From assembly GCA_020633825.1 (NCBI GenBank), contig JACKCV010000002.1:139553-203552 (forward strand): 64,000 nt of DNA, in the 5' to 3' direction. Under the pieces are notes generated by a model that ran no database searches, was not told where the DNA came from, and worked only from the letters and a program-made list of their open reading frames with translations. The DNA comes from Fibrobacteria bacterium. Lineage in GTDB: Bacteria; Fibrobacterota; Fibrobacteria; UBA5070. Positions within the stretch are counted from its first letter, which is position 1. Every line of letters begins with the position of its first letter. This document shows, piece after piece, positions 8,386 through 41,900 of the stretch. The position numbers and the translations under genes are program-made.

Positions 8386-8542
8386 CGGGAGGGCTCCTTG
8401 GAAGAACGATCGTGGGTTGGTCGGAGCCCAAAGGTACCTCCACCCGGACGATCGATTCCCGAGTTCTTTCCCAGAGGGAAAGCATGATCGGGGCGATTCT
8501 ATAAGGTGGATCTTTTCATCTGTCAATCAAGAAATGCGTGGT

Positions 8543-8557
8543 GCGACAAATTGCCGC
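8543..8557 (+). promoter_or_regulatory. Candidate RegA/PrrA-type box GCGAC-N5-GCCGC (imperfect dyad) in divergent promoter region
   Basis: Sits in the AT-richer 245-nt region between yicC and the Rieske/cyt-b operon; fits the GCGNC-N5-GNCGC pattern recalled for PrrA/RegA sites. Confidence 0.2.
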
Positions 8558-8630
8558 ATTGTTCATCGGGGGCAAGTCAATGATCATTGCTAGCCAACGA
8601 TGACCGCCCAAATCCACGGAAAGGCGACCC

Positions 8631-9791
8631 ATGATTGACCCTCTTCTCCGCATCGGAGGCGCCCTGGTGATGGCCGGGAACATGCCTCCGGCGGATTCGC
8701 TCGCGCTCCCGGCTCCGGTCTGGCTCCTCAAGACCCTGCACGACCTCACCCTCGCCTTGCACTTCGGTGCCCTCCACCTCCTGGTGGGCGGATTGGCCCT
8801 GGTGGTGGTCTGGAACCTGGTCGGTCATCTGCGCAAGGACGAGGCGACCCGCAGGTCTTCCGAAGTGGTCGCCCGGAAACTCCCCGTGGTGACCACCTAC
8901 GTGATCAACCTCGGGGTTCCACCGCTCCTGTTCGCCCAGGTCCTCTACGGCCAGGCGCTCTACACCAGTTCCGTCCTGATGGCCGCCTGGTGGTTTTCCG
9001 CCGTGTTCCTCATCATGGGCGCCTACGCGATCCTGTACCGCATGGCCTACCTGGCCGACAAGGAGCGCCCGTTCTGGTGGTGGGCGATCGCGGCCGCGGC
9101 GGTCCTTTCCTTCGTCGGACGTCTCTTCTCCGGAAACATGACCCTCATGCTGCGCTCCGAGTCCTGGAACGCCCTCTACGCGGCCGATCCCCACGGCATG
9201 TCGCTTCCCGCCGATCCCACCACCTGGCCCCGCCTGATCCTCATGTTCCTTTCCTTCATCGGATTGGGAGCCCTGGGCACGTCCCTGTGGGCCAACATCG
9301 ACAATGCGCGCGGAGTGGCCGCGGCGTTGCGCCGCAAGAGCGCCCTGGTCGCGGTGGTGGTCCTTCCCGCCGTGCTGTTCGCGGGGCTGCGAGCCATGGG
9401 GGTCCAGCCCGTCGGTGTGCAATCCGCGGTCTTGGGATCCCCCCTGGGACATGCGCTTTCGTGGGTCTGGATCGGCTCCATCGCCACCGCCTTCCTGGTC
9501 GCCGCCGCGCTGGCCTGGAAACCCGTCGGTTGGATCTCCTGGTTGGGGACGGTCCCCGCCTTGGGAGCTTTGGCGAGCCTGACCATCGTCCGCGACCTCG
9601 TTCGCGATGCCACGCTCGGTCCGCAAGGTTTGGACGTCTGGGCCTCGGTGGTGCACACCAACTGGACCTTGGTCTGGATCTTCCTCGTGACCCTGGTCCT
9701 GGGGCTCGCCTTCGTGGCCTGGATCGGCGTCGTCATCGGGCGCGCCACACCCGCATCCTCGCTCACTTCCGCGGAGGGATCCCATGTCTGA
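8631..9791 (+). CDS. Polytopic membrane protein (~10 TM, uncharacterised), first gene of Rieske/cyt-b operon
   Basis: Hydrophobic helices throughout; stop overlaps the Rieske start by 8 nt (translational coupling). Confidence 0.6.
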   Translation: MIDPLLRIGGALVMAGNMPPADSLALPAPVWLLKTLHDLTLALHFGALHLLVGGLALVVVWNLVGHLRKDEATRRSSEVVARKLPVVTTYVINLGVPPLLFAQVLYGQALYTSSVLMAAWWFSAVFLIMGAYAILYRMAYLADKERPFWWWAIAAAAVLSFVGRLFSGNMTLMLRSESWNALYAADPHGMSLPADPTTWPRLILMFLSFIGLGALGTSLWANIDNARGVAAALRRKSALVAVVVLPAVLFAGLRAMGVQPVGVQSAVLGSPLGHALSWVWIGSIATAFLVAAALAWKPVGWISWLGTVPALGALASLTIVRDLVRDATLGPQGLDVWASVVHTNWTLVWIFLVTLVLGLAFVAWIGVVIGRATPASSLTSAEGSHV

Positions 9792-10266
9792 GAACCAAAA
9801 CACCTCCGGATCCACGGAACAAGGTGCCTCCTCCGAACGTCGCACCTTCCTGAAGGTCGCGGCTTGCGGCGTGGGTGCCGCTTGGGCGGGGATGGTGGGA
9901 TACCCGATCTACCGCTACATCGCCTCGCCCGTCGAAGAAGCCGCATCCGCCGATGTGGTGACGGAAGTCGAGGTCGAGAAAGGGGCGGAGCTTCCCAAGA
10001 ATGCGGCCTTGATGTTCAAGTTCGGCACCAAGCCGGCGATGCTGATCCACCACGACGACGACACCTGGTCGGCGTTCCTGGCGGTCTGCACCCACCTGGG
10101 ATGCACTCCGGCCTACCAGCCGGAAGAGAAGCGGATCTTCTGTCCCTGCCATTCGGGGGTCTACGACGCCCATTCCGGCGCCAATGTGGCCGGCCCTCCG
10201 CCCAAGCCCCTTCCCCAGTTCAAGGTCGCTGTCGCCGACGGAAAGGTTGTGGTGTCCCGTGCCTGA
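9784..10266 (+). CDS. Rieske [2Fe-2S] iron-sulfur protein with Tat signal
   Basis: 'SERRTFLK' twin-arginine signal; 'CTHLGC' and 'CPCHSG' Rieske boxes. Confidence 0.9.
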   Translation: MSENQNTSGSTEQGASSERRTFLKVAACGVGAAWAGMVGYPIYRYIASPVEEAASADVVTEVEVEKGAELPKNAALMFKFGTKPAMLIHHDDDTWSAFLAVCTHLGCTPAYQPEEKRIFCPCHSGVYDAHSGANVAGPPPKPLPQFKVAVADGKVVVSRA

Positions 10267-11356
10267 GTCCCTCGGTCCGAAAGTCTACTCCTGGCTCGAT
10301 GAGCGCTTGGGATTGTCGCCCATTCTCGAGCTCGCCCTGAAGAAGCGGGTTCCCGACCACAAGCACTCCTTCTGGTACTACTGGGGAGGCATCACGCTGT
10401 TCTTCTTCATCGTGATGTGTTTCACAGGCGTCCTCCTGCTGCTGTATTACCGTCCCGGCGACGGGGCCTACGAATCGGTCCAGCAGATCAACACCCAGAT
10501 CAAGTTCGGATGGCTCATCCGCTCCATCCACTCCTGGTCGGCCAATCTCATGGTGGCGGCCGCATTCGTGCACATGTTCAGCACCTTCTTCATGAAGGCC
10601 TACCGGGCACCGCGCGAATTCCTCTGGTGGTCGGGCTTCGGTCTGCTCAGCCTGGCCATGGTCTTCGGATTCTCGGGGTACCTCCTGCCGATGGACGACC
10701 TCGCCTACTTCGCGACCAAGGTGGGATTGTCCATCCCGGCGGTGATGCCGGTCGTCGGTCCTTGGATCGCCGATCTCGTGCGCGGTGGACCGGACATCAC
10801 GGCCTACACGATTTCCCGCTTCTTCGCCTTGCACGTGGTGATCCTCCCCGCGTTGTTCATTCCCCTGCTGCTTCTCCACCTCGGTCTGGTCCAGCAGCAC
10901 GGCATGTCGATCCCGGAATCGGAGCAGCAGAAGCCCGAAGCCGAGCGCAAGTCCATCCCGTTCTTCCCGAACTTCGTGTTCAAGGACCTCGCCGTCTGGC
11001 TGGTGGCCCTCAATGTCCTGGCCTTGTTGGCCGTGGCCTTCCCTTGGCCTCTGGGACCGGCGGCCGATCCGTTGGCGCCGGCTCCGGCCGACATCCATCC
11101 GGAGTGGTACTTCATGAGTTCCTTCCAGATCCTCAAGGCCTTCGGCGGTTGGTTCCCCGGTGTGGTCGGGGAATTCCTGGGGATCGCCTTCTTCAACGCC
11201 GGTGTCGTGTTGTGGGCCTTGGTGCCCCTGTTCGACCCGAACACGAAATCGGGCCAGTGGGGGCGTCGCGTCACCTGGTTCGGATTCGTCGTCCTCGCCG
11301 TCTTGATCGTGACCACCATTTGGGGCTACGCGGTTCTTCCCGCCGTGGCCCACTGA
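10259..11356 (+). CDS. Cytochrome b (b6-type with fused subunit-IV-like C-terminus)
   Basis: GTG start overlapping the Rieske stop (GTGCCTGA); 'FWYYWGGITLFFF', 'IRSIHSWSANLMVAAAFVHM' heme-ligand helices; 365 aa. Confidence 0.85.
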   Translation: MPESLGPKVYSWLDERLGLSPILELALKKRVPDHKHSFWYYWGGITLFFFIVMCFTGVLLLLYYRPGDGAYESVQQINTQIKFGWLIRSIHSWSANLMVAAAFVHMFSTFFMKAYRAPREFLWWSGFGLLSLAMVFGFSGYLLPMDDLAYFATKVGLSIPAVMPVVGPWIADLVRGGPDITAYTISRFFALHVVILPALFIPLLLLHLGLVQQHGMSIPESEQQKPEAERKSIPFFPNFVFKDLAVWLVALNVLALLAVAFPWPLGPAADPLAPAPADIHPEWYFMSSFQILKAFGGWFPGVVGEFLGIAFFNAGVVLWALVPLFDPNTKSGQWGRRVTWFGFVVLAVLIVTTIWGYAVLPAVAH

Positions 11357-11368
11357 GGAGACGCACCC

Positions 11369-12733
11369 ATGAACTATCCTGCCTGGGACGTACCCTATCT
11401 CGGCTCCGGATGGATGATCGGCATCGTCGCCATCATCCACATCCTGATCTCCCACTTCGCCGTGGGTGGCGGCATCTTCCTTCCCCTGACCGAGGCCAAG
11501 GCGCTTCGCGAAGGCCGCAAGGATTGGATGTTGCGCCTGAAAGGCTACTCCAAGTTCTTCCTCGTGCTCACCGGCGTGTTCGGCGCCATGACGGGCGTGG
11601 GGATCTGGTTCGCCATCGGACTGGCCAGCCCCAACGGCACCAGCGCCCTCATCCACAACTTCGTGTTCGGCTGGGCGATCGAGTGGGTGTTCTTCCTCGT
11701 GGAACTCACCTTGGCGATGGTCTACTACTACACCTGGGACCGCATTCCCGCGAAGCTCCACCTGACCATCGGATGGATCTACGCCGCGGTTTCCTGGGGA
11801 ACCCTGGTGATCATCAACGGCATCCTCACCTTCAAGCTCACTCCCGGGCCGGAGTGGATGGCGTCGGTCGGAACGGGGCGCGAATCCGAGTACTTCTTCG
11901 ACGCGTTCTTCAACGCGGGCTACCTCCCCAGCCTGGGGCTGAGGACGCTCGCCTGCCTTTCCCTGGCGGGAATCTGGTCGCTGTACTTCTTCAGCCGCCT
12001 CGACGGGGAATCCGACGGCAAGACCAAGGCCAGCATGGTGCAGTGGTCCTCGATGTTCCTGATTCCGTCCTTCCTCCTGATGCCCGTGTTCTTCGCCTGG
12101 TACGTCTTCACGATCCCGGCCGACCATCGCGCCCTGCTGGAACTCGGAATCTCCAGCGCTTCCGCCGGGACCTTCACCCACGTCACGCGCATGACCATCC
12201 TTTCGGTGGTGAGTTCCGCGACCATCGCCCTGGCGGTCATGTTCTTCGCCTGGTTCCAGCCCACGGAACTCAAGCGCGGACACGCCCTTTCCATCCTGTT
12301 TTTGGCCCTGCTCGCCACGGGTTCGACGGAAAGCGTCCGCGAATTCCTGCGCAAGCCGTTCGTGGTGAACGGGTACATGTACTCCAACGGCGTGCGCGTG
12401 AACCAGATCGAGGGATTCAATCGCGACGGCTACCTCACGGGATCGGTCTGGTCGCCGGTGTCCCCCGACGCGGCCTTCCACCACAAGTCGGTGGGGGAGA
12501 GGATGTTCCAGGGCCAGTGCATGGCCTGCCACACCCTCGACGGATACCGTCCCATCCGCAAGCTGCTGGCGGGTCGGGACACCACCTCGATCGGAAGCGT
12601 CCTGAAGATGCTCCACGACAACGCCCCGGAGAGCCCCTACCGGAAGTTCATGCCGCCTCTGGTGGGAACCGAGGAGGAGATCCGCGCCCTCCGGGATTGG
12701 CTCGCCGTGCAGGTCGCTCCGGCTTCCCACTGA
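11369..12733 (+). CDS. Integral membrane protein with C-terminal mono-heme c-type cytochrome domain (CxxCH)
   Basis: ~370-aa multi-TM N-domain plus 'FQGQCMACHTLDGYRP'; 12 nt after cyt b. Confidence 0.7.
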   Translation: MNYPAWDVPYLGSGWMIGIVAIIHILISHFAVGGGIFLPLTEAKALREGRKDWMLRLKGYSKFFLVLTGVFGAMTGVGIWFAIGLASPNGTSALIHNFVFGWAIEWVFFLVELTLAMVYYYTWDRIPAKLHLTIGWIYAAVSWGTLVIINGILTFKLTPGPEWMASVGTGRESEYFFDAFFNAGYLPSLGLRTLACLSLAGIWSLYFFSRLDGESDGKTKASMVQWSSMFLIPSFLLMPVFFAWYVFTIPADHRALLELGISSASAGTFTHVTRMTILSVVSSATIALAVMFFAWFQPTELKRGHALSILFLALLATGSTESVREFLRKPFVVNGYMYSNGVRVNQIEGFNRDGYLTGSVWSPVSPDAAFHHKSVGERMFQGQCMACHTLDGYRPIRKLLAGRDTTSIGSVLKMLHDNAPESPYRKFMPPLVGTEEEIRALRDWLAVQVAPASH

Positions 12734-12759: not shown

Positions 12760-13308
12760 TCATCGCGGAGGGGGGAAGCGGGCGAGCTTGCGCTGCAGGG
12801 ACCGGCGGTCGATTCCCAGTTCGCGGGCCGCACGGGACACGTTCCCGTCGCAGTCGGCCAGTACGCGGTGGATGTGCTCCCATTCCACGCGATCCAGGGA
12901 GGGCGTCTCGATCCGGATCGATTCCTGCTTTCCCTCGAGGACGGCGGCGATCTGGTTCCCGTCCAGGGGTTTGGTGCGGTAGTCCGATGCGCCCGCGCGG
13001 ACGGCTTCCAGCGCCGAGGCGATGCTGCCGTAGCCGGTGAGGACCACGATGGTCGCGTCGGGCAGGATCTGTCGCAAGGCCGTCACCAGGTCGAGACCGT
13101 TCTCCTGGCCCAGGCGCAGGTCGACCAGGACGTGGTCGGGTGCGTTGCGTTGGGCGTTCTGGATGGCCGCGGCCCGGTTCGAGCATGTCCACACCTCGTA
13201 CCCGCGCCGGCGCATGGAAAGCCCCAGTCGTTCCCGATAGGCGTCCTCGTCGTCGACGATCAGGAGCTTCCCGCGGGGGCCTTCCCCCGGTTGGGCCTGG
13301 GAGGTCAC
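12760..13308 (-). CDS. RegA/ActR/PrrA-family response regulator (REC + Fis-type HTH)
   Basis: GTG start overlapping the kinase stop (GTGA); 'KLLIVDDED', 'DLRLGQENGLDL', C-terminal 'SRAARELGIDRRSLQRKL'; 182 aa. Confidence 0.85.
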   Translation of the reverse strand: MTSQAQPGEGPRGKLLIVDDEDAYRERLGLSMRRRGYEVWTCSNRAAAIQNAQRNAPDHVLVDLRLGQENGLDLVTALRQILPDATIVVLTGYGSIASALEAVRAGASDYRTKPLDGNQIAAVLEGKQESIRIETPSLDRVEWEHIHRVLADCDGNVSRAARELGIDRRSLQRKLARFPPPR

Positions 13309-14585
13309 GACCCCATCTCCGCGTCGGGCACCCGCAGTTCCGCCGTGGTTCCTTCCCCTGGGCGGGAGGTCACCTTCAAGGTTCCTCCGCAACGATCCGC
13401 GAACGTCCGCACCAGGAAAAGCCCCAGACCCATCCCCTTCCCGGGGCCCTTGGTCGACAGGAACGGCTCGCCCAGGCGCGGGAGCAGATCCGGAGGGATC
13501 CCTTCCCCCCTGTCGCGCACGGTGAAGACCGAGTCGTTGGCTTCCCGCCGAAACGACATGTCCACGACTCGACCCTCCGGAGACGCCTCCACGGCGTTCT
13601 TCACCAAGGTGACCAGGGATTGGATCAGAGGGGCTTCCGGAAGCACCATCTGGACATCCCTTTCCAGACGAGGCGGAACCAGGCGGGCGGAAAGCGAGGG
13701 ATGGAGTGCTTCGGAGAGGGCGGCGAGGATCTGGGAGAGGGACGTGCGGACGGGGCCGTCCCCGATTCCCGAAGTGGTGTGGCTGCCCAGGCGATCCAGG
13801 ATGCGTCGGCACCGGTCCACCTCCGATCGGATCAACAAGGCATCGTCGCGCCACTGGTCGGAAGGGGTGTCCGCAGGGAGGGAGGCGAGGTCCGCCGAGG
13901 CCACGGCGATGGTTCCCAACGGGGATGCCAGTTCGTGGGCCACTCCCGCCGCCAACGTGGCCAGGGATGCGAATTGGCGATCTCGCAGGGCCCGATGGCG
14001 CCATTCGCCGAGATCGCGTTCCTGAGATTCGAGGGCATGGCGGAGGTTGGCGACGAAGTAGGCGATGGAAGTTCCGACCAGGGCCAGCGCGGCCAGGTTT
14101 CCGATTCGCTCCAGACGGGGAGCGATGGGCCATGGGGGGGAGGTGGTCTGCACGAGGGCTCCGGCCACCACCAGCAGCAGGAAGAACCACATGTGGGAGC
14201 GGGGAACCAGGACGGCGGCCATCGCCAGGTGGAGAAGGAAGAACAGGGTGAACGGATTGGTGGTGCCCCCCGTGAACCACAGCATTCCCGTGAGGACCAG
14301 GGTGTCGATCCCGAGCAGGCCCGAGATCCAGGACCCCGCATGGATCCCTTCCCGTCGGGAGCGATGGTGCAGGAACATGTTGCTCAGCAAGGTGAAGCCG
14401 AGGAATCCCGACAGGGGGAGCCAGGGAAGATGGATGCCATCCAATTGCGAGGCGAAGGCGCAGGTGCTGGCCTGTCCCGCGAGGGCGGCCCACCGGAGGC
14501 GGAGCAGCCACCGCAAGCCGGGGTGGGCGTTCTCGGCGTTCGTGCCGCCGGGAAAACCGCCGAGGTTCTTCAGTCGGTTCGGCAT
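13305..14585 (-). CDS. RegB/PrrB-family redox-sensing histidine kinase
   Basis: 6-TM N-domain with 'GGTTNPF' (GGxxNPF quinone-site motif); H-box 'AGVAHELASPLGTI'; G-box 'GMGLGLFLVRTF'. Confidence 0.8.
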   Translation of the reverse strand: MPNRLKNLGGFPGGTNAENAHPGLRWLLRLRWAALAGQASTCAFASQLDGIHLPWLPLSGFLGFTLLSNMFLHHRSRREGIHAGSWISGLLGIDTLVLTGMLWFTGGTTNPFTLFFLLHLAMAAVLVPRSHMWFFLLLVVAGALVQTTSPPWPIAPRLERIGNLAALALVGTSIAYFVANLRHALESQERDLGEWRHRALRDRQFASLATLAAGVAHELASPLGTIAVASADLASLPADTPSDQWRDDALLIRSEVDRCRRILDRLGSHTTSGIGDGPVRTSLSQILAALSEALHPSLSARLVPPRLERDVQMVLPEAPLIQSLVTLVKNAVEASPEGRVVDMSFRREANDSVFTVRDRGEGIPPDLLPRLGEPFLSTKGPGKGMGLGLFLVRTFADRCGGTLKVTSRPGEGTTAELRVPDAEMGS

Positions 14586-14670
14586 GGTGCCGCCGGGCGG
14601 AGGGGAACGAGGTGGGGGCCGGTACTCGTGCGAAGTGGCGCGGTGGAGCTGGCGGGCACGGTCGGGAGGA

Positions 14671-15024
14671 TCAGAGGAGGTTGCAGGCCTGCCTGCCGTC
14701 CTGCAGGGTCGGATAGATGGGGATGATGCTCCCGAGGCTCGCGACCTGGAAGACCTCGAGGATGTCCGAGCGGTTTTCCACGAGGAACATCTGCGAGGAT
14801 TTCTTGCGGAACCCCAGGGCGTAATCGATGATCCCCGCCAGGCAACAGCTTCCGAGCAGTTCCAGACCCGTGGTGTCCATGGCCAGGGGCAGGGGTGGTT
14901 CCATCGACATCAAATCGGAGAGGACGGCCCGGAATTGCGCGAGTTGAGGCATCGCGAAATCGGTTCCCTCCAGATGGAGCACCCGGAGATTCGGGAGCGT
15001 TTCAACAGTGAAGAGACAGCCCAT
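14671..15024 (-). CDS. STAS domain protein (anti-sigma-factor antagonist-like)
   Basis: 117-aa SpoIIAA-like pattern, immediately upstream and co-directional with the RegB-like kinase. Confidence 0.45.
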   Translation of the reverse strand: MGCLFTVETLPNLRVLHLEGTDFAMPQLAQFRAVLSDLMSMEPPLPLAMDTTGLELLGSCCLAGIIDYALGFRKKSSQMFLVENRSDILEVFQVASLGSIIPIYPTLQDGRQACNLL

Positions 15025-15098
15025 GGAAGAAAGCTAGGACCCTGGTGGCGGCTGTCAACCGACCATCCACACGATTGCGCGACCTGCGGGGAGTGCGA

Positions 15099-16883
15099 TC
15101 AGGCCAACAGCCCGATCTTGCGGATGGACTCGATGGCGACATCCCTCCGCTCCCCGGTGGACAGGAGGATCGCTTCCAAGGTGGCCGGTTCCCGGCGACG
15201 GTCGACACGAAGCGGGCGCAGCCGCATGGCCCTGCCCGGCGGTGTTTTGAGCACGACCTCGATCTCGTTCTCGGTGAGTGCCGCGTATTCCGCCAATTTC
15301 ATGCAATCGGCGTAATCGAGTTCCCGCAAACCGGTGCCGGCGTAGCGCGAGCTAGATCCGGGGATGGTGCGCGAGACCATCTCCCCGTTGGGCCAGGACC
15401 ATCGATGCTCGCGCAGTTCGGGTTCCGGGGCGGGGGATTTCCACGGGTGGACCGGTGCGCTGCTGGGGTCTTCGGGAGGGAAGTACCCCAGGCTCGAAAG
15501 CAGCCTGCGGATGGTGGGTTCCTGGGTCGGATCGATCAGGAAGCCCCAGTCCGGGATGGTTTCGAGAGTGAGCGAGAGGAACGCGTCGAGCGCGCAGAGT
15601 TGGCGGTGGCGCAGCGGGTCGGCGATGCGCAGGAGCCTGGCGGATTCGAACCTGCACGCGCGACGGGTGGCGAGCCATTCCTCGAGTTGGACGAGGACCG
15701 CGGCCGGAGGCGCCAGATCCTCGAGCAGGGTCGGAATGCGTCCGGCCCAGGATTCGAGGGCGGCGGCGGCCAGCACCTTGTCCCGATCGAGCTTCCATCG
15801 GGAGACCAGGTCGGCGGACTCGCGTTTCCCGAGGAAGGACGCGTCCCGATGATGCCCGAGGGGGGACTGCGGGGCCAGGAAGATCTGCAGATCGGACGTG
15901 CACCACCAGGTGCGTTCCGCTCGTGGATGGATGGAATCGATCCACGGCCACACGAAGACCAGGTCTCCCTGGGCGCACTCCCGTTCGAGGATGCCGACCA
16001 CCAGGGCTTCCCGCAGGAGTCGGGGAAGTTGGGTCCAGCTCCGGCCGGTGGGCCCGGGAACCAGCAGGCCTTCCCGGCGGAAGAACAGGCGTGCGGCGAA
16101 GTCGGCGTCGGCCCCGTCGGGAAGATTGGTGGCGATCCAGTCCTTGATGCCGCCGGTTCGCCGCTCGCGCGACTCCCACCAGCGCAGAGCGAAGTCCGGG
16201 CGATCGTCCAGGGAGGCGAGCCAGGTCGGCAGGTCCGGGGAGGATTCCAGGGCCCCATCCCTTCGCAGCAGGAGACCCTGGTCGGAGAGGAAGTCGAGAG
16301 CCAGGTCGAGGGCCATTTCCTGCGCCCCTTCGCCGAGGTCGGACAGGTGCGAAAAAATTTCGCGCAGAGTCGGTCTGTCGCGACGATTCAGGGAACCGTC
16401 GCGGTTCAGTCGAGCTCCCCCGAGGTCGATGGCGGCGGAGAGCGATGCGATCGATTCGAGGAAGGCGCGCGAGGCGTGGCGTTGTCCCTGGGGCCTCTCG
16501 CGGGGGGGGATGTCGAAGGTCTGCGCGGCGGCCACGACGGTGGGGGTGAGGTCGATCACGGGGTGCCAGGTCGGCGGCTCCTCGCGATCCAGGATGATGA
16601 CAAATTCCGACGCAAGGGTCTCGAGATCCTGCCTGTCCTCGGGAGCGAAGGCCTCGCAGGGGATTCCGCCCTCGCCGGCGAGATGGATGTCGAGCGCGAT
16701 GGCGGCGGTGGACGGGGAGTCGCGCAGGAGCGGTTCGATCCTCTCGCCGGAAACCATCCAGGCCTCGATCTCCAGGTTGATCCTGCTGCGTTGCACCAGG
16801 CCTTCTCTGCCGAGGCGATGGGCGTGGAGGGAAGCGATTTCTCCCTGGGGAACCTGATCGAGAAGCTGACGTACAGATGGCAT
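15099..16883 (-). CDS. Hypothetical protein (594 aa)
   Basis: Minus-strand frame has balanced L/E/D/A composition; the overlapping plus ORF is G/R/P-rich. No recognisable motif. Confidence 0.4.
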   Translation of the reverse strand: MPSVRQLLDQVPQGEIASLHAHRLGREGLVQRSRINLEIEAWMVSGERIEPLLRDSPSTAAIALDIHLAGEGGIPCEAFAPEDRQDLETLASEFVIILDREEPPTWHPVIDLTPTVVAAAQTFDIPPRERPQGQRHASRAFLESIASLSAAIDLGGARLNRDGSLNRRDRPTLREIFSHLSDLGEGAQEMALDLALDFLSDQGLLLRRDGALESSPDLPTWLASLDDRPDFALRWWESRERRTGGIKDWIATNLPDGADADFAARLFFRREGLLVPGPTGRSWTQLPRLLREALVVGILERECAQGDLVFVWPWIDSIHPRAERTWWCTSDLQIFLAPQSPLGHHRDASFLGKRESADLVSRWKLDRDKVLAAAALESWAGRIPTLLEDLAPPAAVLVQLEEWLATRRACRFESARLLRIADPLRHRQLCALDAFLSLTLETIPDWGFLIDPTQEPTIRRLLSSLGYFPPEDPSSAPVHPWKSPAPEPELREHRWSWPNGEMVSRTIPGSSSRYAGTGLRELDYADCMKLAEYAALTENEIEVVLKTPPGRAMRLRPLRVDRRREPATLEAILLSTGERRDVAIESIRKIGLLA

Positions 16884-20770: not shown

Positions 20771-21595
20771 CTACCTCAGAAGACTCATGACGCCTTGCGG
20801 GAGCTGGTTGGCCTGGGCCAGCATGCTCTGGGCGGAATTGGTCAGGATCTGGTTGCGAGTGAACTTCGTGGTTTCCGTGGCGAAGTCCGTGTCGCGGATC
20901 CGACTTTCGGCGTCCGTCATGTTCGTGATCGAAACACCAAGGTTCGAGACGGTCTTTTCGAGCCGGTTCATCGCCGCACCCACATCGGAGCGCATGGAAA
21001 GAACGGACGTGAGAGCCGTATCGATGCTGTTGATCGCCGACTGCGCCGCCGACTGCGTACTGACCGCGCCGAGGCTGAGATCGCCGGCAAGGTTGGTCGC
21101 AAGGGAGAAGCTGATGGTCGAAGAACTGGCCGCGTTGCCCGACGAACCGGCGGCGGACACCTGGAAGGAGAAGGTCGACGTGGTCGACAGCAGATCCACA
21201 CCGTTGTAGGTGGTGGACTGTGCGATCCGCGTGATTTCCGACTTCAGTGCCGTGAATTCCGCCTGGATGTAGGAGCGGTCGGTATTGGTGTAGGTTCCGT
21301 TGGAGGATTGGATCGCCAGCTCGCGCATGCGTTGCAGGGAGTTGGTGATTTCCTGGGTCCCGGATTCCGCGATCTGGAGCATGGCCAGGGAGTCGTTCGA
21401 ATTTCGCTGGGCCGTCTGGCTGCCGCGGATCTGCGAACGCAGGCCCTCGGAGACGGAAAGACCGGCGGCATCGTCGGCGGCTCTGTTGATGCGAAGGCCC
21501 GTGGAAAGCTTCTCCAGGGACTTCGACATGGCCATGTTCGTCGTCGCGAGCGAATTCTGGGCATTCGTCGCGTTGACGTTGTTGTAGATGCGCAT
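20771..21595 (-). CDS. fliC: Flagellin (274 aa)
   Basis: N-terminus 'MRIYNNVNATNAQNSL...LSTGLRINRAADDAAGLSVSEGLRSQI'; C-terminus 'LAQANQLPQGVMSLLR'; GGAGG RBS. Confidence 0.92.
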   Translation of the reverse strand: MRIYNNVNATNAQNSLATTNMAMSKSLEKLSTGLRINRAADDAAGLSVSEGLRSQIRGSQTAQRNSNDSLAMLQIAESGTQEITNSLQRMRELAIQSSNGTYTNTDRSYIQAEFTALKSEITRIAQSTTYNGVDLLSTTSTFSFQVSAAGSSGNAASSSTISFSLATNLAGDLSLGAVSTQSAAQSAINSIDTALTSVLSMRSDVGAAMNRLEKTVSNLGVSITNMTDAESRIRDTDFATETTKFTRNQILTNSAQSMLAQANQLPQGVMSLLR

Positions 21596-21700
21596 GATGC
21601 ACCTCCATGTGGTCGTTCAAGACAGGACAGCGTCCTTGCCGTCCATCCCGGATCCCTCCGGACGCCCGCCTCGCGGTTGGAGACCGGAGTTCCCCTCATA

Positions 21701-21730
21701 CTTATCGGATGAATCATTCTTGCGTTTTAG
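21701..21730 (-). promoter_or_regulatory. Sigma-28 (FliA)-like promoter TAAAACGC-N12-TCCGATAA upstream of flagellin 1
   Basis: Minus-strand reading 'CTAAAACGCAAGAATGATTCATCCGATAAG', ~105-135 nt upstream of the ATG. Confidence 0.5.
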
Positions 21731-21836
21731 CCTTTATTCATCGGCATTCGCGAGTCGGCTAGACAGAAAACGACAAAGACCGCGCAGCCCGAAGGCGGCG
21801 CGGTCCCGAGTGCCTGGAAGGCTCTTCAGGGGGTCA

Positions 21837-22661
21837 TCAACGCAGCAGGCTCATGACGCCCTGCGGGAGCTGGTTGGCCTGGGACAACATGCTCTGCGCG
21901 GAGTTGGTCAAGATCTGATTGCGGGTGAACTTCGTGCTCTCCATCGCGAAGTCGGTGTCGCGGATGCGGCTTTCCGCGTCGGTCATGTTGGTGATGGCCA
22001 CGCCGAGGTTCGAGACGGTCTTCTCCAGGCGGTTCATGGCGGCACCCACGTCCGACCGCATCGAAAGCACCGAGGTCAGGGCCGTGTCGATGCTGGTGAT
22101 GGCCGTCTGCGCCGCCGACTGGGTGCTGACCGCACCGAGGGAGAGGTCTCCCGCGAGATTGGTTGCCAGGGAGAAGCTGATCGTCGAGGAGCTCGCCGAG
22201 GCTCCGGCGGATCCGGCCGCGGAGACCTGGAAGGAGAAGGTCGAGGTGGTGGAGAGCAGATCGACGTTATTGTAGGTCGTGCTCTGGGCGATGCGGGTGA
22301 TTTCCGACTTCAAGGCCGTGTATTCGGCCTGGATGTAGGAACGGTCCGTGTTGGTGTAGGTGCCGTTGGAGGACTGGATGGCCAATTCCCGCATGCGCTG
22401 CAGGGAGTTGGTGATCTCCTGGGTTCCGGATTCCGCGATCTGGAGCATGGCGAGAGCGTCGTTGGAATTCCGCTGGGCCGTCTGGCTGCCGCGGATCTGC
22501 GAACGCAGACCTTCGGAGACCGACAGACCGGCGGCATCGTCGGCGGCTCTGTTGATGCGTAGACCGGTGGAAAGCTTCTCCAGGGACTTCGACATGGCCA
22601 CGTTGGCGGTGGCGAGCGAGTTCTGGGTTCCAATGGCGTTGACGTTGTTGTAAATGCGCAT
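21837..22661 (-). CDS. fliC: Flagellin (274 aa; ~95% identical to copy 1)
   Basis: 'MRIYNNVNAIGTQNSL...'; start picked inside ORF 21837..23042; GGAGG RBS. Confidence 0.92.
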   Translation of the reverse strand: MRIYNNVNAIGTQNSLATANVAMSKSLEKLSTGLRINRAADDAAGLSVSEGLRSQIRGSQTAQRNSNDALAMLQIAESGTQEITNSLQRMRELAIQSSNGTYTNTDRSYIQAEYTALKSEITRIAQSTTYNNVDLLSTTSTFSFQVSAAGSAGASASSSTISFSLATNLAGDLSLGAVSTQSAAQTAITSIDTALTSVLSMRSDVGAAMNRLEKTVSNLGVAITNMTDAESRIRDTDFAMESTKFTRNQILTNSAQSMLSQANQLPQGVMSLLR

Positions 22662-22783
22662 GATGTCCAACCTCCGTGTCGGGCGTATGCAGGTGACGAC
22701 GCTTCCGGGAGAGGCTCCCGGAAGTTCCCTTCTTCGGTGGTTTCCTCCATCCTTGGAGGTCCCTTCCGACTCTTCTTCCATTC

Positions 22784-22810
22784 TTTCGGCGATTTGGCGG
22801 CGCGACTTGA
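22784..22810 (-). promoter_or_regulatory. Weak sigma-28-like promoter TCAAGTCG-N12-GCCGAAAG upstream of flagellin 2
   Basis: Minus-strand reading of 'ctttcggcgatttggcggcgcgacttga'; partial match to consensus. Confidence 0.3.
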
Positions 22811-23076
22811 GGGTTTTTTGGCGATCCAGGGGGGAAGGACGGAGCGATGCCGCCTCCCTGCGGTCCTGGGGAGGGAGGCGTCTCCGCGCCGCCGAGGAGG
22901 GGCAACCGCGCCGCGGAGGCGTCTTCGGGGGAATGCGTAGCTCCCGACCGATCGGTCGATCCCGGGGGGGGGCGGGGCGTTCGGCCAGAAAGGCCAAAGC
23001 CCGCCCCGGTAGATCCGGGACGGGCTCGAGGGATCTCCCCAAGGGAGGAGGGAGGAGAGGGGAGACCCCGTTTCGA

Positions 23077-23883
23077 TCACTTCAAGAGGGACATCACGTT
23101 GTTGGGCAGCTGGTTGGCCTGGGCCAGCATGCTGGTGGCCGACTGGTTGAGAATCTGGTTGCGCGTGAACTGGGTGGACTCGGTGGCGAAGTCCGTGTCG
23201 CGGATGCGGCTTTCCGCGTCGGCGTAGTTGGTGATCATCACGCCCAGGTTGTTCACCGTCTTCTCCAGCCGATTCATGGTGGAGCCGATGGTGGAGCGCA
23301 GCGACAGCACCGAGGTCAGGGCCGTGTCGATGGTGGAGATCGCGGCTTGGGCCAGGCTCTGGCCGGAAACCGCACCCAGGGTGAGTCCGGTCAGGTCCAC
23401 GGCGGTGAAGGAGATGGTCGAGGAGTTCCCCGATCCGGCCGAGGAGACCTGGAAGGAGAACGGAGTGGAACCGGCCAGCAACTGCACGTCGTTGTAGGTG
23501 ACGGACTGCGCGATGCGGGTGATTTCGGAGGCGAGCGCGTCGTATTCGGCCTGGATGTACTGGCGCTCGTGGTTGGTGTAGGTTCCGTTGGCCGATTGGA
23601 TGGCCAGTTCCCGCATGCGCTGCAGGGAGTTGGTGATCTCCTGCGTTCCACCTTCGGCGATCTGCAGCATCGCCAGCGCATCGTTGGAGTTGCGGCGGGC
23701 CATGTCGGAGCCGCGGATCTGCGAACGCAGCCCTTCGGACACGGACAGGCCGGCGGCGTCGTCGGCGGCGCGGTTGATGCGAAGTCCGGTGGACAACTTC
23801 TCCAGGCTCTTGGACATCAGGCGGTTGGATGTCATCAGCGAGTTCTGGGTGTTGATGGAGTCGACGTTGTTATAGATGCGCAT
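23077..23883 (-). CDS. fliC: Flagellin (268 aa; diverged third copy)
   Basis: 'MRIYNNVDSINTQNSLMTSNRLMSKSLEKLSTGLRINRAADDAAGL...NNVMSLLK'; start picked inside ORF 23077..23991. Confidence 0.9.
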   Translation of the reverse strand: MRIYNNVDSINTQNSLMTSNRLMSKSLEKLSTGLRINRAADDAAGLSVSEGLRSQIRGSDMARRNSNDALAMLQIAEGGTQEITNSLQRMRELAIQSANGTYTNHERQYIQAEYDALASEITRIAQSVTYNDVQLLAGSTPFSFQVSSAGSGNSSTISFTAVDLTGLTLGAVSGQSLAQAAISTIDTALTSVLSLRSTIGSTMNRLEKTVNNLGVMITNYADAESRIRDTDFATESTQFTRNQILNQSATSMLAQANQLPNNVMSLLK

Positions 23884-24047
23884 GGGGAAACCTCCCTGTT
23901 TTGGAGCTTGCGGGCCGGCCCGCACGGCTTCCCTGCCGCGACGAGATCCGGAAGAAGCGGTTCGCGGTTCCGGCGCTTTGGGTGTTTCCACCCGCGCGAA
24001 CCTGCTTCCTGGATTGGTTGTTGGTTTGCCGGAAATTCATGGTGCGC

Positions 24048-25145
24048 CTACATCACGACCAGTTCGGCCTGGAGGGCGCCGGACTTCTGGATGGCCTCGA
24101 GGATCGCGATCAAGTCGCGGGGCGAGGCTCCCAGGGTGTTGAGGGCGCGGGCGAGTTCGCCCACGTTGGTGGAGGCGGGGAGGACGCGGACCTGGTCCTG
24201 GCGTTCCTCCGTCTGGATGGAAGGGGTGGCGGTGGTCCGGGTCGTGCCGGCCGCGAAGGCGTTGGGTTGGCTGGTCTGGTAGCCCGGGTCGACCTTGATG
24301 GTCAAGGATCCGTGGGTGACGGCGACCTCGTCGATGAGGACGTCCGATCCGGCGACGATGGTGCCGGTGCGTTCGTTGACCACGATCCGGGCGGGCCGGT
24401 CCATCTCCACCCGGAGGTTTTCCAGCTTGGCGATCAGGGAGGCCCGGCCTTCCTTGGGTTCCTTGCCCGTGAACCGGACGCTCGCCGCATCTTCCGCGAT
24501 CGCGCTCCCCTTGCCGAAGGCGGTTTCGATGGAGGTGGCCAATGCGGAGGCGACCGTGAAGTCCGGGCTGCGCAGCGAAAGTCGGAGCGGTCCGTCGTCG
24601 AGACGGACGGCGAGGTTCTCCCGTTGGACGATGGCGCCGGCGGGGATGACGCCCGTGGCGGATTGTCCTTGCGAGATGCTGGCTCCGGCGAGTCCCCTCT
24701 CGATCCCGCCCGCGGTGCCCAGCGGACCTTGGGCGACGGCGTAGAGTTCGCCATCCGGCCCCTTGAGCGGAGCCATCAGGAGGACGCCGCCGGTGAGGGA
24801 GCGTGCGTCGCCCATGGAGGAGACGTGGACGTCCACGCGCCCACCGGGTTTGGCGAAGGGAGGAAGGTCGGCCGTCACCAGGACCGCCGCGACATTGCGA
24901 AGCCGGATCTGGTTGCGGTCCACTTCCAGGCCCATGTTGCGCAAGAGGTTCAAGGTGGAGCGCTGGGTCACTCCCGATCCGGGGCCGTCCCCCGTACCGG
25001 CCAGTCCGACGACGAGTCCGTAGCCGAGGAGAGGCGTGCGGGAGACGCCCTGGACATCGGCCATGTCCTTGACCCTGACCTGCTGGCTCTGGACGGAAAC
25101 CGTCAGCAGCAGCACGGCGAACGGGATGTGGAACGCGGCGCGCAT
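24048..25145 (-). CDS. flgI: Flagellar P-ring protein FlgI
   Basis: Signal peptide then 'VKDMADVQGVSRTPLLGYGLVVGLAGTGD'; 365 aa; ATG overlaps the flgH stop (TGATG). Confidence 0.9.
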   Translation of the reverse strand: MRAAFHIPFAVLLLTVSVQSQQVRVKDMADVQGVSRTPLLGYGLVVGLAGTGDGPGSGVTQRSTLNLLRNMGLEVDRNQIRLRNVAAVLVTADLPPFAKPGGRVDVHVSSMGDARSLTGGVLLMAPLKGPDGELYAVAQGPLGTAGGIERGLAGASISQGQSATGVIPAGAIVQRENLAVRLDDGPLRLSLRSPDFTVASALATSIETAFGKGSAIAEDAASVRFTGKEPKEGRASLIAKLENLRVEMDRPARIVVNERTGTIVAGSDVLIDEVAVTHGSLTIKVDPGYQTSQPNAFAAGTTRTTATPSIQTEERQDQVRVLPASTNVGELARALNTLGASPRDLIAILEAIQKSGALQAELVVM

Positions 25146-25717
25146 CAGAAGATCCAGTCCAGGAAGCGGGCGATCGGCCCCTTGCGCGCGGCCTCGGAGT
25201 CGGCGCCCCGTCCCGAGTAGGTCACCTTGGCGTCGGCCAGACGGCCGGATCTCACGGTGTTTTCGGCGGAGATGTCCTCGGGGCGCAGCAATCCGGCGAC
25301 GGTGAGGATCTCGGTCTCGTCGTTGATCACGACCTGCTTGGTCCCTTCGACCCGGAGGGTTCCGTTGGGAAGGACTTCGATCACCCTCGCGCTGACCACG
25401 GCCTGCATGCTGCCTGCGCGGGAGGTGTTTCCAAGCCCCTTGAAATCGGCGTCCAGGGCGGACTTGGCGGAGGCGTCGGGGAGGAATCCCAGGATCCCGG
25501 ATCCCGCCTGCATTCCCACCGATCCCTTGGAGCTGCTCTGGGTGTTGGTCTGGGCGGCGTTGCGGGCGGTGTTGTCCTCCTCGACGAGGACCGTGACCAC
25601 GTCGTCCACGCGCCGGCTGCGGTGGTCGCTGGTGAGCGAGAAGTCGGAAGGAAGCCTCTCCGCCGCCGAAGCGACGGAAAGTGTCATGAGCGCTGCGATC
25701 GCGGATGGGATCTTCAT
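25145..25717 (-). CDS. flgH: Flagellar L-ring protein FlgH
   Basis: 190 aa with signal peptide; 'VTVLVEEDNTARNAAQTNTQ...' and position upstream of flgI. Confidence 0.8.
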   Translation of the reverse strand: MKIPSAIAALMTLSVASAAERLPSDFSLTSDHRSRRVDDVVTVLVEEDNTARNAAQTNTQSSSKGSVGMQAGSGILGFLPDASAKSALDADFKGLGNTSRAGSMQAVVSARVIEVLPNGTLRVEGTKQVVINDETEILTVAGLLRPEDISAENTVRSGRLADAKVTYSGRGADSEAARKGPIARFLDWIF

Positions 25718-38591: not shown

Positions 38592-38933
38592 GCTTTTCTT
38601 ATGCTTTTCTTAAGTGGGTGGCGGCATACATTATAAACATCATACCGCCAGTTCCCTGCGGGTGGGCGGGTCGGTTCTCCAAAAGAATCGGCCCGCCTTT
38701 TTTTTGCGGAAATTCGACGCTGGTTGTGCTTCGTTCACGGTTTGAGCACAGATTCGTCGTCTGATTCCACTTCGATCCGGGAAACACCCTGCCAGTCCAA
38801 GGACTCGGGTGTAAACTGTCACGGATTGTAGCTGGATCCAGTGAGATCGCTCCCTCTGGTTCCAGGTCCTGGCGGGCCTCTCACACCGTCTGAAAATGGC
38901 CCCAAGGTTTGGTTTCGAACGCTCGAGGTTTTC

Positions 38934-41900
38934 ATGACTCGCATTCGTGGTCTGGGTTTGCTTCTTGGTATTGCCATGGTTCTGGGGATTCCCAGTTCTT
39001 CGATGGCCGGGAAGACGTTGATGTTCCTGATGGACGAGTACATCATTTCCAACACCGACTCGGTGGCGGGAACCCCTCAAGTTTGGATCCAGCACTACGA
39101 TTCGGCCGCCGCCAATGTGGGGTACTACTACGGCGCCAAGGACCTCTTCCTGACCCAGACCGACGCGTACGCCAAACCGATTCCGGTCCACAGTGCCGAG
39201 CCGGACTCCATTCCCTATCCCCGGCAGCTGGAGCGTTGGTGGTATTCGCTGCCGGATTTCAACTCGGCCCAATTCCGCGAGGGCAAGGTCCGTCTGACCA
39301 TGCAGTACATGATGGTCATGCACCGGTGGCTCAATGGAAATCCCAGCCGGATGCAGATCGATACCCAGTCCAATCGCGGCAATTCCACCACCTCGGAACT
39401 GAATACCCCGACCTCTCGCGAGATCGACAACTGCATCGATACCCTCCATGGGGACACCATCTGGATTCGGCATACGGCATCCGACAACGACTCCGTCGGG
39501 ACCATTTCCAACAACCCCAGTGCCGCTTCCATGCGTTGCTACGACCACAATCCCTTCTTCAAGAAGGTTGGAACGGTCCACGTCCTGAATCCCTGGCCGG
39601 GGAAAACCGTTTGGGCGCAGGTGGGGACGGAATGGTACCCGCTCTACGCCGAGCCGGGGCGGGCGGGTTGGGTGACGGCCTCCCTCTGGCAGGATCCGCG
39701 GACCGCGGCACCCTTCGTGGTTCGATTCGCCAATGGGGACCCTCGGGTCTCGTCCGCGGTGACGTACATGGATGCGGGCGGACTTGCCGGAAACGCCTCG
39801 GGCATCGGTTTGGATTTCACGGCCAATGCCGGCAAGAGCGTCTGGGTGATTCCGCCGACCGGGGCGCTTCCGGCTCCCACCGTTTCCACGGTCCAGCCGG
39901 CGAAGAAGCTCACGCTCATGATTCACCGGCCGGCTTGGAACGCCTCCGCGGTCCGTGTGATGTGGAAGGGGATGGATGCCAGGTTCATCGCCTCCAGCAC
40001 CGAGTATTGCGATTGGTTCAGCATGGACTTCTACGAGGGAGCCGTTCCCGAGCAGATCGTTCTGCGCCAACCCTTCGTGGATTCCCTCTTCGGGCAGAAC
40101 GGCTTGGCTGCAGCCCCGGCGCTGATGAGCAACTTCACCGACTGGATCACGGTGAATCCCGTCCTGGCCGCCAGCGGGACCTTGTGGCTCGAGACCGACG
40201 GCAACCGGGCGACCTTCCTCGGGACGGCTCCCGCCACCGCCACCATCTGCAACGAAAAGATCCTGGCCTTTTCGGCCTGGGACTTCTCCAAGATCTACAA
40301 CCCCTACAAGCCCTTCACCGAAGGGCTCGGATACAAGACGGACAACTGCCCGACCTCTGGAGGCAAGGAAACCAAGGGACTGGTCCTTCCCACCCTCAAC
40401 AGCAAGGGGGTTCCCACCTGGAGCGGCAAGGTCGACTGCAACATCGGCAACACCCTCGATGGTCCCCAGTACTGGTTCGACACCTTGGTCCGGGGAGGTG
40501 TTCCGATGAATTCCTTCACCTGCGTGCCGCTGCCCCTGACCCTGGACGCCACCGGATACTACAAGTACTCCAATCCGACGTTCTTTCCCCTGGACACCTT
40601 CACGACGTTGCGTGACGGAACACCCAACCGGTTCAACGACAAGGAATACAACAGCCGGAACAACAACTTCGGCTTCTGCATGCACGCCAAGGCTTCGTTC
40701 GAATACGTTCCGGGCTTGCAGTTCCGGTTCCGCGGGGACGACGACGTCTGGGTCTTCATCGACAAGAAACTCGCCATGGACATCGGCGGGCAGCATGGTC
40801 CCGTGGACGGGGACATCAAGCTCGACAATCTCGGCCTGAGCGAGGGCAAGTCCTACCAGTTCGACATGTTCTACTGCGAACGCCACGAACTCGGCTCGTC
40901 CATCCTGATCCAGACCACCATGAACCTGGTCCCGACCATCGATGTCGAATTCGACAGTTCGGGGGCGAAGCCGGGGGTGTACGACTACATCTCCTGGATC
41001 AAGGAGACGACCAATCGCGCCGACATCTGCCCGGAGCTGGGGGCGGCCACCGCCACCAACAAGCGCAGAGGCCCGGCCATCTACACCCTGGTGAGTCCCG
41101 ACCTCACGGAAATCACCCTGGATTCCCTGGTGGCGACGCAGTACCCGGGATTGGTGATCACCGACCTGAACTCCCACATCGCCATCGACACGGCGGCCCT
41201 GAAGAAATCGGGTCGGCTGGTCACCAGCGGTCTGTACCAGATCCGGATCAACGTCGGATCCGAGGAACGCATCGTTCCATTCACCATTTCCTCCGACGCC
41301 GTGCAGGTGTTCGGGGTGTTGCTGGACCGGAATGGAGACGGTCAGCCCGACAGCGTGGTCCTGAAGACGGACGACCAGGCGGCGTCGTTCCGTGTACCGG
41401 TTTCGGCGACCCTGCGATGGGCCGACCGCTCGGGGGTACCCGATTCGGTTTCGGTCCCCTCCACCAATCTCCACAAATATCCCGGGGATTCCACTCTGAC
41501 CGGTGGCTTCCTCCTCCCGTCCCGAACCAGTTGCCCCCCCGCCGGATGCACCGGGAACATGGGAGCCGTCTACACCGCCAACGGGGGCGACACGGTCTAC
41601 AACCCGATCGTCGAACTCCGGGATGGAATGGCTCCCGTCGCCGACAGTGCTTGGCTGATCTACGACTCCACGGGATTGGGCAAGGATACCTTGTTCGTGA
41701 TCGCCTCCGAAGCCTTGGTCGCCACCATGAAGGCTGCACTTCCCGTGGGCGATTCGGCCTTCGTCCTGACTGGTCGATCGATTGCCGCACGGCCGGTCCC
41801 CGGGACCGCCATCCTGGTCGGGAACCTCCTGAAACTTCCCATCGATCCCGCGACCAATCCCATCCAGCCCGGGGATTCCATCCGCCTGGGTGGATGGTCG

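Follow-up and report, generated by a model that had tools for sequence, protein, structure and literature searches.

We analysed a 64-kb window of DNA from the metagenome-assembled genome (MAG) of a member of the Fibrobacteria (contig JACKCV010000002.1; G+C of 60-68% along the window and 65% in the genome), in which a two-component system related to RegB/RegA lies beside a four-gene respiratory operon. On the minus strand, the gene for a sensor histidine kinase of the RegB/PrrB/ActS family (13305-14585; 426 amino acids (aa), with six transmembrane (TM) helices and a C-terminal HATPase domain) is followed by the gene for a response regulator of the RegA/PrrA/ActR family (12760-13308; 182 aa), made up of a REC domain with acceptor Asp63 and a Fis-type helix-turn-helix (HTH) that contains EWEHIHRVLADCDGNVSRAARELGIDRRSLQRKLA. 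The TGA stop codon of the kinase gene and the GTG start codon of the regulator gene overlap as GTGA at 13305-13308, an arrangement that couples their translation, and a GGAG Shine-Dalgarno sequence is present 5' of the regulator. The operon (8631-12733, plus strand) is convergent with the regulator gene, leaving 26 bp between both stop codons. It encodes a polytopic membrane protein without Pfam match (8631-9791; 386 aa), a Rieske [2Fe-2S] subunit with a Tat signal (9784-10266), a cytochrome b that fuses a b6-like and a subunit-IV-like part (10259-11356; 365 aa in the gene call, the longest open reading frame starting at 10184), and a CydA-like membrane protein of the OR-C1a type with a C-terminal CxxCH cytochrome c domain (11369-12733; 454 aa). 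Within the intergenic region 8386-8630, upstream of the first operon gene, lies the 17-bp palindrome TGCGACAAATTGCCGCA (8542-8558, no strand assigned), which we propose as a RegA-type operator. A sequence-only reading of this window had suggested, from the layout alone, that the two-component system controls the neighbouring operon.

RegB proteins are defined by six TM helices, R31 and Q38 in TM1, an H-box His and a redox box in which a conserved Cys, Cys265 in Rhodobacter capsulatus, has cationic residues on its flanks (PMC3000548, PMC8191878), and carry in the short TM3-TM4 loop a fully conserved GGXXNPF heptapeptide, a quinone site that includes N110 and F112 in R. capsulatus (PMC3000548). 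In an AlphaFold2 model of the window kinase (predicted local distance difference test, pLDDT, of 84.4), the N-terminal part formed helices at residues 22-48, 55-76, 83-105, 111-126, 129-146 and from 157 onwards, and GGTTNPF, residues 106-112, was located in the loop between helices 3 and 4, confirming the six-TM domain with this heptapeptide that had been read from the sequence. We compared the kinase with 88 homologous kinases from at least six phyla, including Verrucomicrobiota, Myxococcota, Planctomycetota, Acidobacteriota and Binatia. Since G106, G107, N110, P111 and F112 were kept in 87-88 of these 88 proteins, GGTTNPF is not a chance match. R31 and Q38, which are found in TM1 with the numbering used in the literature, were conserved in 82 and 76 of the 88 kinases, respectively, and were also invariant in A1 and A6. 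The H-box His217 (AHELASPLGTI, aligned to ActS AAHELGTPLATI) was present in all 88 and was placed by the model on the helix that continues from TM6, while the redox box R258-C259-R260 (SEVDRCRRIL, aligned to ActS SERCRDIL) had C259 on the second DHp helix and its Cys in 87 of the 88. When the kinase was aligned with Sinorhizobium meliloti ActS, Rhizobium ActS and Azospirillum RegB, as named by the Prokaryotic Genome Annotation Pipeline (PGAP), R31, Q38, GGxxNPF, H217 and R-C259 were invariant; an alignment of this kind had been proposed as a check on the redox-box Cys and the heptapeptide, and both aligned.

The Pfam scan of the kinase gave HATPase_c (E 1.1e-21) and a weak match to HisKA, and no HAMP domain was found in the protein. 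Its top NCBIfam match was the ActS/PrrB/RegB model NF033792 (194.2 bits, E 3.4e-57), with an alignment that covered positions 10-415 of the 423 of the model and took in the membrane domain; the next family, ZraS, reached 83 bits in the catalytic core only, and the other NCBIfam families matched only generic domains of the kinase and the regulator. A neighbour-joining tree built from the kinase core grouped the canonical RegB/ActS proteins with a set of alphaproteobacterial paralogues and a non-proteobacterial clade, and split them in 91 of 100 bootstraps from an outgroup that was a small sample of only four unrelated kinases. The non-proteobacterial clade, to which the window kinase belongs, was monophyletic in 100 of 100 bootstraps. 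The kinase groups with RegB-like sequences and not with the four other kinases. Judged by its sequence, it carries all the sequence-defined features of RegB and is a member of that family in the broad sense.

The regulator had been described as a protein of about 182 aa with REC and Fis-HTH domains and a start at a GTGA overlap, a description that was borne out at 12760-13308. Pfam placed Response_reg at residues 16-124 (E 1.8e-22) and HTH_8/Fis at residues 138-178 (E 5.6e-13), and the top NCBIfam match was the ActR/PrrA/RegA model NF033791 (169.1 bits, E 8.4e-50, positions 3-171 of 173), followed by a family at 87 bits. The regulator is 45-49% identical to PGAP-named ActR and RegA proteins, the acceptor Asp of which aligns with D63. 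Its best solved relative is the Burkholderia pseudomallei regulator 3rqi (E 2.9e-36), and its HTH shares 25 of 44 positions with the PrrA effector domain 1umq (E 1.9e-10). The HTH is identical among alphaproteobacterial RegA, PrrA and RegR, which serves as a family criterion. In the window regulator the HTH core WEHIxR…NVS…AR.L…RR(S/T)LQRxLA is kept, but the recognition helix begins with D and not with H, and the HTH is not identical to that of PrrA; D in place of H before RRSLQR was found in Fibrobacterota and in some Verrucomicrobia regulators. Across 84 regulators, the HTH was almost invariant (EWEHIQRVL.DC.GN.S.AAR.LG.HRRSLQRKL) and close to PrrA WEHIQRIYEMCDRNVSETARRLNMHRRTLQRILA. The regulator gene lies directly 3' of the kinase gene in nearly all of the 88 loci.

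As regards the operon, PF01654 (CydA) matched only the first ~190 positions of the 454-aa protein, the C-terminus of which carries CxxCH. The OR-C1a proteins of the cytochrome bd superfamily have been described as having about eight helices, of which the first four are shared with CydA, no quinol site and a C-terminal haem c (bioRxiv 10.1101/2021.01.16.426971), and the sequence of the 454-aa protein matches this description. Its residues H24, H29, E105, E112, H131, C384xxC387H388 and M428 were invariant in an alignment that included Verrucomicrobia and Pirellulales homologues, and the protein was 57-79% identical across Fibrobacterota, Hydrogenedentes, Verrucomicrobia, Planctomycetes, Acidobacteria and Armatimonadota. 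Outside Fibrobacterota, all four genes also stay together as one cassette in Fontisphaera, a Hydrogenedentes MAG and an Armatimonadaceae MAG (L091, L092, L093). Across those genomes its first gene encodes 370-390 aa, and the cassette contains no cytochrome c1 gene. For the 386-aa protein of the window as a CydA paralogue, BLASTP returned nothing and hhalign a probability of 49%, while a Pirellulales homologue matches PF01654; this membrane protein may be an OR-C1b-type partner subunit. The earlier label of a bc-type operon holds for the Rieske subunit and cytochrome b and is incomplete, as a CydA-like/cytochrome c protein is also encoded. The preprint in which OR-C was defined (bioRxiv 10.1101/2021.01.16.426971) nowhere mentions Rieske in its main text, and the cassette may be an undescribed bc/bd-like quinol-to-oxygen module. 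Plausibly, its products would form a chain from quinol to oxygen, with the fused cytochrome c in the place of cytochrome c1.

The kinase-regulator pair neighbours the same four-gene operon in all four available Fibrobacterota loci (the window, L003, L004/L005 and L007), with two CotH genes between pair and operon in L004 and L007. When the four operon promoters were compared, the palindrome was the only conserved island and the rest was divergent; the kinases of these loci are only 44-50% identical. The palindrome reads TGCGACAAATTGCCGCA in the window, TGCGGCAAAATGCCGCA in L003 and TGCGGCAATTTGCCGCA in L004 and L007. Its centre lies 81 bp upstream of the first operon start codon (8631) in the window and 73-216 bp upstream across the four loci, and the copy in the cassette promoter is the only local one in each of them. 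The window as a whole contains one such palindrome, against 0.04 expected. A second conserved element, ATCNTTG/CCATCTTG (8583-8589), is located 24 nucleotides (nt) 3' of the palindrome and occurs in all four promoters. It may be a -10-type box, in which case the operator would lie near -45, a position typical of activators. A terminator scan gave nothing above background, and the 'terminator-like' match at 8538-8557 is the palindrome itself. A second near-site at 53221-53237 has three mismatches; it is located within HMGL-like coding sequence, and we regard it as fortuitous.

With the published motif strings taken as quoted in PMC5506826, the palindrome agrees with the R. capsulatus RegA motif SSGNVRDNHYSNCSS at 15 of 15 positions, with the Rhodobacter sphaeroides PrrA motif YSCGGC(5)GWCRMA at 11 of 12, and with the Bradyrhizobium japonicum RegR motif GNGRCRTTNNGNCGC at 10 of the 11 specified positions. 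It also fits the 'GCG inverted repeat' described in PMC4263372. In a set of 88 non-redundant loci (1.2 Mb), the palindrome occurred 9 times exactly, 24 times when one mismatch was allowed and 43 times when two were allowed, compared to 0, 0.07 and 1.2, respectively, in first-order Markov controls. Of the 43 sites, 24 adjoin the pair, at 400 bp or less from the start of the kinase gene on its upstream side or from the stop of the regulator gene on its downstream side. The simplest reading of these data is that the palindrome would be the operator of the regulator family present in the window, and we infer that the regulator is its binder. The conserved RegA-type palindrome in the operon promoter lends independent support to the control of the neighbouring operon that had been put forward from gene layout.

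The genes beside the palindrome in other phyla were also inspected. They included an ACIII-like pair (a multihaem c7 and a Mo/FeS protein), CcmH, CopD, YtkA-like, MbnP and a MauG-like dihaem peroxidase, together with many TonB-dependent receptors with a CarboxypepD_reg domain in Acidobacteria (L032 9968-13725; L040 11015-11440; L053 5473-6675; L055 9863-10312; L080 11294-12337; and L023, L048, L050, L083, L084 and L089). Homologues of OR-C1a (bd-like/cytochrome c) are encoded just downstream of the regulator gene in one Verrucomicrobia locus and in one Pirellulales locus. Among the loci L011-L090, the sequence TGCGRCAAWTTGYCGCA adjoins RegBA-like pairs of Verrucomicrobia, Myxococcota, Acidobacteriota and Planctomycetota, either just 5' of the kinase gene or just 3' of the regulator gene (examples are L013 9829-9845, L048 9811-9827, L050 3575-3591 and L089 7946-7962). 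There are hints that the regulon of this clade couples respiration with copper or haem acquisition, which is compatible with the known role of the family.

Collectively, we consider it probable that the locus encodes a redox two-component system of the RegB/RegA family that would tune the adjacent operon, through the palindrome, to the state of the electron transport chain. In the proposed mechanism, the six-helix domain of the kinase would carry a quinone site, formed by GGTTNPF with R31 and Q38, and its cytoplasmic part the redox-box C259, and both would report the reduction state of the respiratory quinone pool and of the cell; this signal is the one we infer from the conserved residues. 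Under reducing conditions the kinase would autophosphorylate on H217 and pass the phosphate to D63 of the regulator, a dimer of which would then bind TGCGACAAATTGCCGCA upstream of the four-gene operon. Transcription of the operon would in this way follow the state of the electron transport chain, possibly by activation, which the position of the site would fit.

Several findings weigh against this reading. The scores of kinase and regulator remain below the equivalog cut-offs of their models (350 bits for NF033792 and 250 bits for NF033791). NCBI therefore gives the kinase only a generic name, 'HAMP domain-containing histidine kinase', whereas JGI labels many of its homologues RegB; the kinase is a divergent member of the RegB clade outside the curated equivalog boundary, and not a RegB that PGAP could name. 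The window contained 6 matches to the loose consensus GCGNC-N5-GNCGC where 5.25 were expected; this consensus thus shows no enrichment and, at such a high G+C content, is uninformative alone. The surroundings of the STAS, kinase and regulator genes of the window yielded no palindrome, and the best matches there had 4-5 mismatches. Pair and operon are convergent, so that their adjacency alone is weak evidence, and the same cassette occurs in Fontisphaera (Verrucomicrobia), Hydrogenedentes and Armatimonadota without the palindrome upstream. In other phyla, copper-uptake or TonB-receptor genes are frequent neighbours of the palindrome, and the physiological signal could therefore be a different one. 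Finally, the experiments on RegB were done with ubiquinone and the quinone of the host may differ; the quinone sensed by the window kinase is probably not ubiquinone.

Part of this evidence would suit a RegB/RegA-family system that exerts no control on the neighbouring operon, the gene order being inherited and the palindrome serving another factor or role. Besides the convergent orientation and the cassettes that lack system and palindrome in three other phyla, it would account for the pairs of Verrucomicrobia, Myxococcota, Acidobacteriota and other loci that are not beside such an operon, and for the MarR-type gene that lies directly upstream of the operon in L003. We nevertheless regard it as unlikely, given that the palindrome travels with the pair across phyla and sits directly beside it at 24 of 43 sites, that it fits three published RegA-family motifs, and that it is the sole copy, in the cassette promoter, of all four Fibrobacterota loci despite the CotH insertions.

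Similarly unlikely, in our view, is a RegB/RegA architecture that responds to an input other than the redox state of the quinone pool, for instance oxygen, the status of copper or of haem-copper oxidases, or some other membrane signal. The palindrome-flanked genes for MbnP, CopD, YtkA-like and MauG-like proteins, CcmH and TonB-dependent receptors point in that direction, as does a host that probably lacks ubiquinone. However, across all 88 kinases no positions of the sensor part are better conserved than GGxxNPF, R31, Q38 and the redox-box Cys. Moreover, copper-delivery genes accompany the canonical system too: senC/prrC sits between regB and regA in Rhodobacter, and for this reason copper targets are compatible with redox sensing.

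The sequence-only reading had also drawn attention to a gene for a STAS-domain protein (14671-15024, minus strand; 117 aa), which indeed lies directly upstream of the kinase gene on the same strand, at a distance of 85 bp. Directly upstream of it follows a gene for a 594-aa protein without Pfam or NCBIfam match (15099-16883, minus strand). The STAS protein scored 26.8 bits with PF01740 (cut-off 22.6) and 32.6 bits with TIGR00377, below the cut-off of 53.45, and no PDB sequence match was found for it. A putative promoter, TTGACA-N16-TAGCTT (15031-15058, minus strand), was read by eye, with its end 6 nt from the STAS ATG. L003 has this box too, and joint transcription of the STAS, kinase and regulator genes may start from it. 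A generic sigma-70 promoter scan found no promoters, not even this box. In L003, the closest relative, the order STAS-kinase-regulator is kept together with the upstream gene for a 574-594-aa protein (6789-8513 in L003), the products of which are 57% identical between both genomes. The conserved STAS box of L003 is at 8508-8585, and TAGRT-type boxes occur 7-12 nt before the kinase start codons in L003, L004 and L007; leaderless or near-leaderless transcripts are suggested for this lineage.

An integral role of the STAS protein, as a third component that modulates the kinase by a partner-switching input, appears improbable. It would be in keeping with the short gap on the same strand, in which no promoter is recognisable, with the shared upstream box and gene order in L003, and with a conserved D-T-T-G-L phospho-site-like motif in the protein. 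Against it, a STAS gene is absent 5' of the kinase in L004, L007 and all 80 genome loci from other phyla, the small open reading frames upstream of the L007 kinase had no Pfam match, and a search of the 64-kb window for a kinase or phosphatase partner of the RsbW, RsbU or SpoIIE type gave none. We know of no STAS component in RegBA systems. Of the earlier claim, the position of the gene stands, whereas its linkage is kept only in L003 and a functional role in the system is unsupported; we treat the STAS gene as a neighbour that is possibly co-transcribed. A generic histidine kinase/regulator pair with 'GGTTNPF' by chance, to which the NCBI name and the sub-equivalog score might point, is already refuted by the full-length RegB match including the TM domain, the invariant signature residues, the RegB-like position in the tree and the lack of HAMP, and we give it practically no weight.

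A RegB/RegA-family system controlling the adjacent operon can be compared with the canonical systems, i.e., RegB/RegA of R. capsulatus, PrrB/PrrA of Cereibacter sphaeroides, ActS/ActR of S. meliloti, RegS/RegR of B. japonicum and RoxS/RoxR of Pseudomonas aeruginosa. Their kinases share with that of the window the six TM helices, GGxxNPF between TM3 and TM4, R31/Q38, the H-box His and the R-C-R redox box; their regulators share the size of about 180 aa, the REC and Fis-type HTH domains, D63 and the recognition helix xRR(S/T)LQRxL. Common to all is also a regulator gene immediately 3' of the kinase gene, a GCG-type inverted repeat (putative in the window) and respiratory genes as targets or neighbours. 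The window system differs in its Fibrobacterota host, in a kinase only 26-28% identical to ActS/RegB and a regulator 45-49% identical to ActR/RegA, in a recognition helix that starts with D instead of H, and in the lack of a senC/prrC-type gene between kinase and regulator. Its putative operator is a crisp 17-bp palindrome and not a degenerate motif, and the palindrome was absent from the canonical ActSR/RegBA loci examined.

The RegB-like paralogues on alphaproteobacterial plasmids have the same architecture and the signature residues, including GGxxNPF and the redox-box Cys, and differ from the window system in forming a separate branch of the tree and in their recognition helix, RRTLARKL. 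Each pair comes immediately after a terminal-oxidase operon, cyoBCD-SURF1 on an Azospirillum plasmid (L001, 3998-5858) and cydAB-cydDC on a Thioclava plasmid (L002, 3875-5745), and the annotations read no more than 'ATP-binding protein' and 'response regulator'. No 17-bp palindrome was found in these two loci at up to three mismatches. A functional analogue is ArcB/ArcA of Escherichia coli, the kinase of which is silenced by oxidised quinones via redox-active cysteines and which controls respiratory genes (PMC3000548). Its architecture, with two TM helices, a PAS domain, a hybrid phosphorelay and an OmpR-type regulator, is unrelated to that of RegB/RegA.

Elsewhere in the window, a second two-component system was found at 106-2752, where the gene for a HisKA/HATPase kinase precedes that for a sigma-54-dependent NtrC-type regulator (REC-AAA-HTH_8). 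The region 20771-25717 carries flgH and three tandem flagellin genes, and the L003 locus also has flagellin neighbours; from these genes, the Fibrobacteria lineage of the window appears to be flagellated. Two very large open reading frames are present at 38841-44951 (2036 aa, with a weak PA14 match) and 58188-62261 (1357 aa, without Pfam match).

RegB/RegA is the textbook global redox regulator of Proteobacteria. Homologues from Acidobacteria, Planctomycetes and Verrucomicrobia are already included in published trees (S3 Fig legend, PMC8191878), and a Fibrobacterota member was therefore expected rather than surprising. What the present sequences add is a putative operator that is crisply defined, and its likely target, the four-gene cassette. 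The motifs of the proteobacterial RegA family are notoriously degenerate, and a sharply defined presumed operator would therefore make regulons predictable by sequence in many uncultured phyla. The cassette itself is biochemically uncharacterised, and RegBA-type control, if it holds, suggests redox or oxygen shifts as conditions in which to look for its activity. More tentatively, and with somewhat less than even confidence, we propose that a deep non-proteobacterial clade of RegBA systems, which spans Fibrobacterota, Verrucomicrobiota, Planctomycetota, Acidobacteriota, Myxococcota and Binatia, uses TGCGRCAAWTTGYCGCA as its operator. The operator would wire sensing of the quinone pool, in Fibrobacterota, to a cassette in which Rieske/cytochrome b feeds OR-C directly, without cytochrome c1; in other phyla it is located at copper-acquisition, ACIII and cytochrome-biogenesis genes. 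If this is true, the regulon would be predictable, and the OR-C enzymes, the function of which is so far unknown, would gain an experimental handle.

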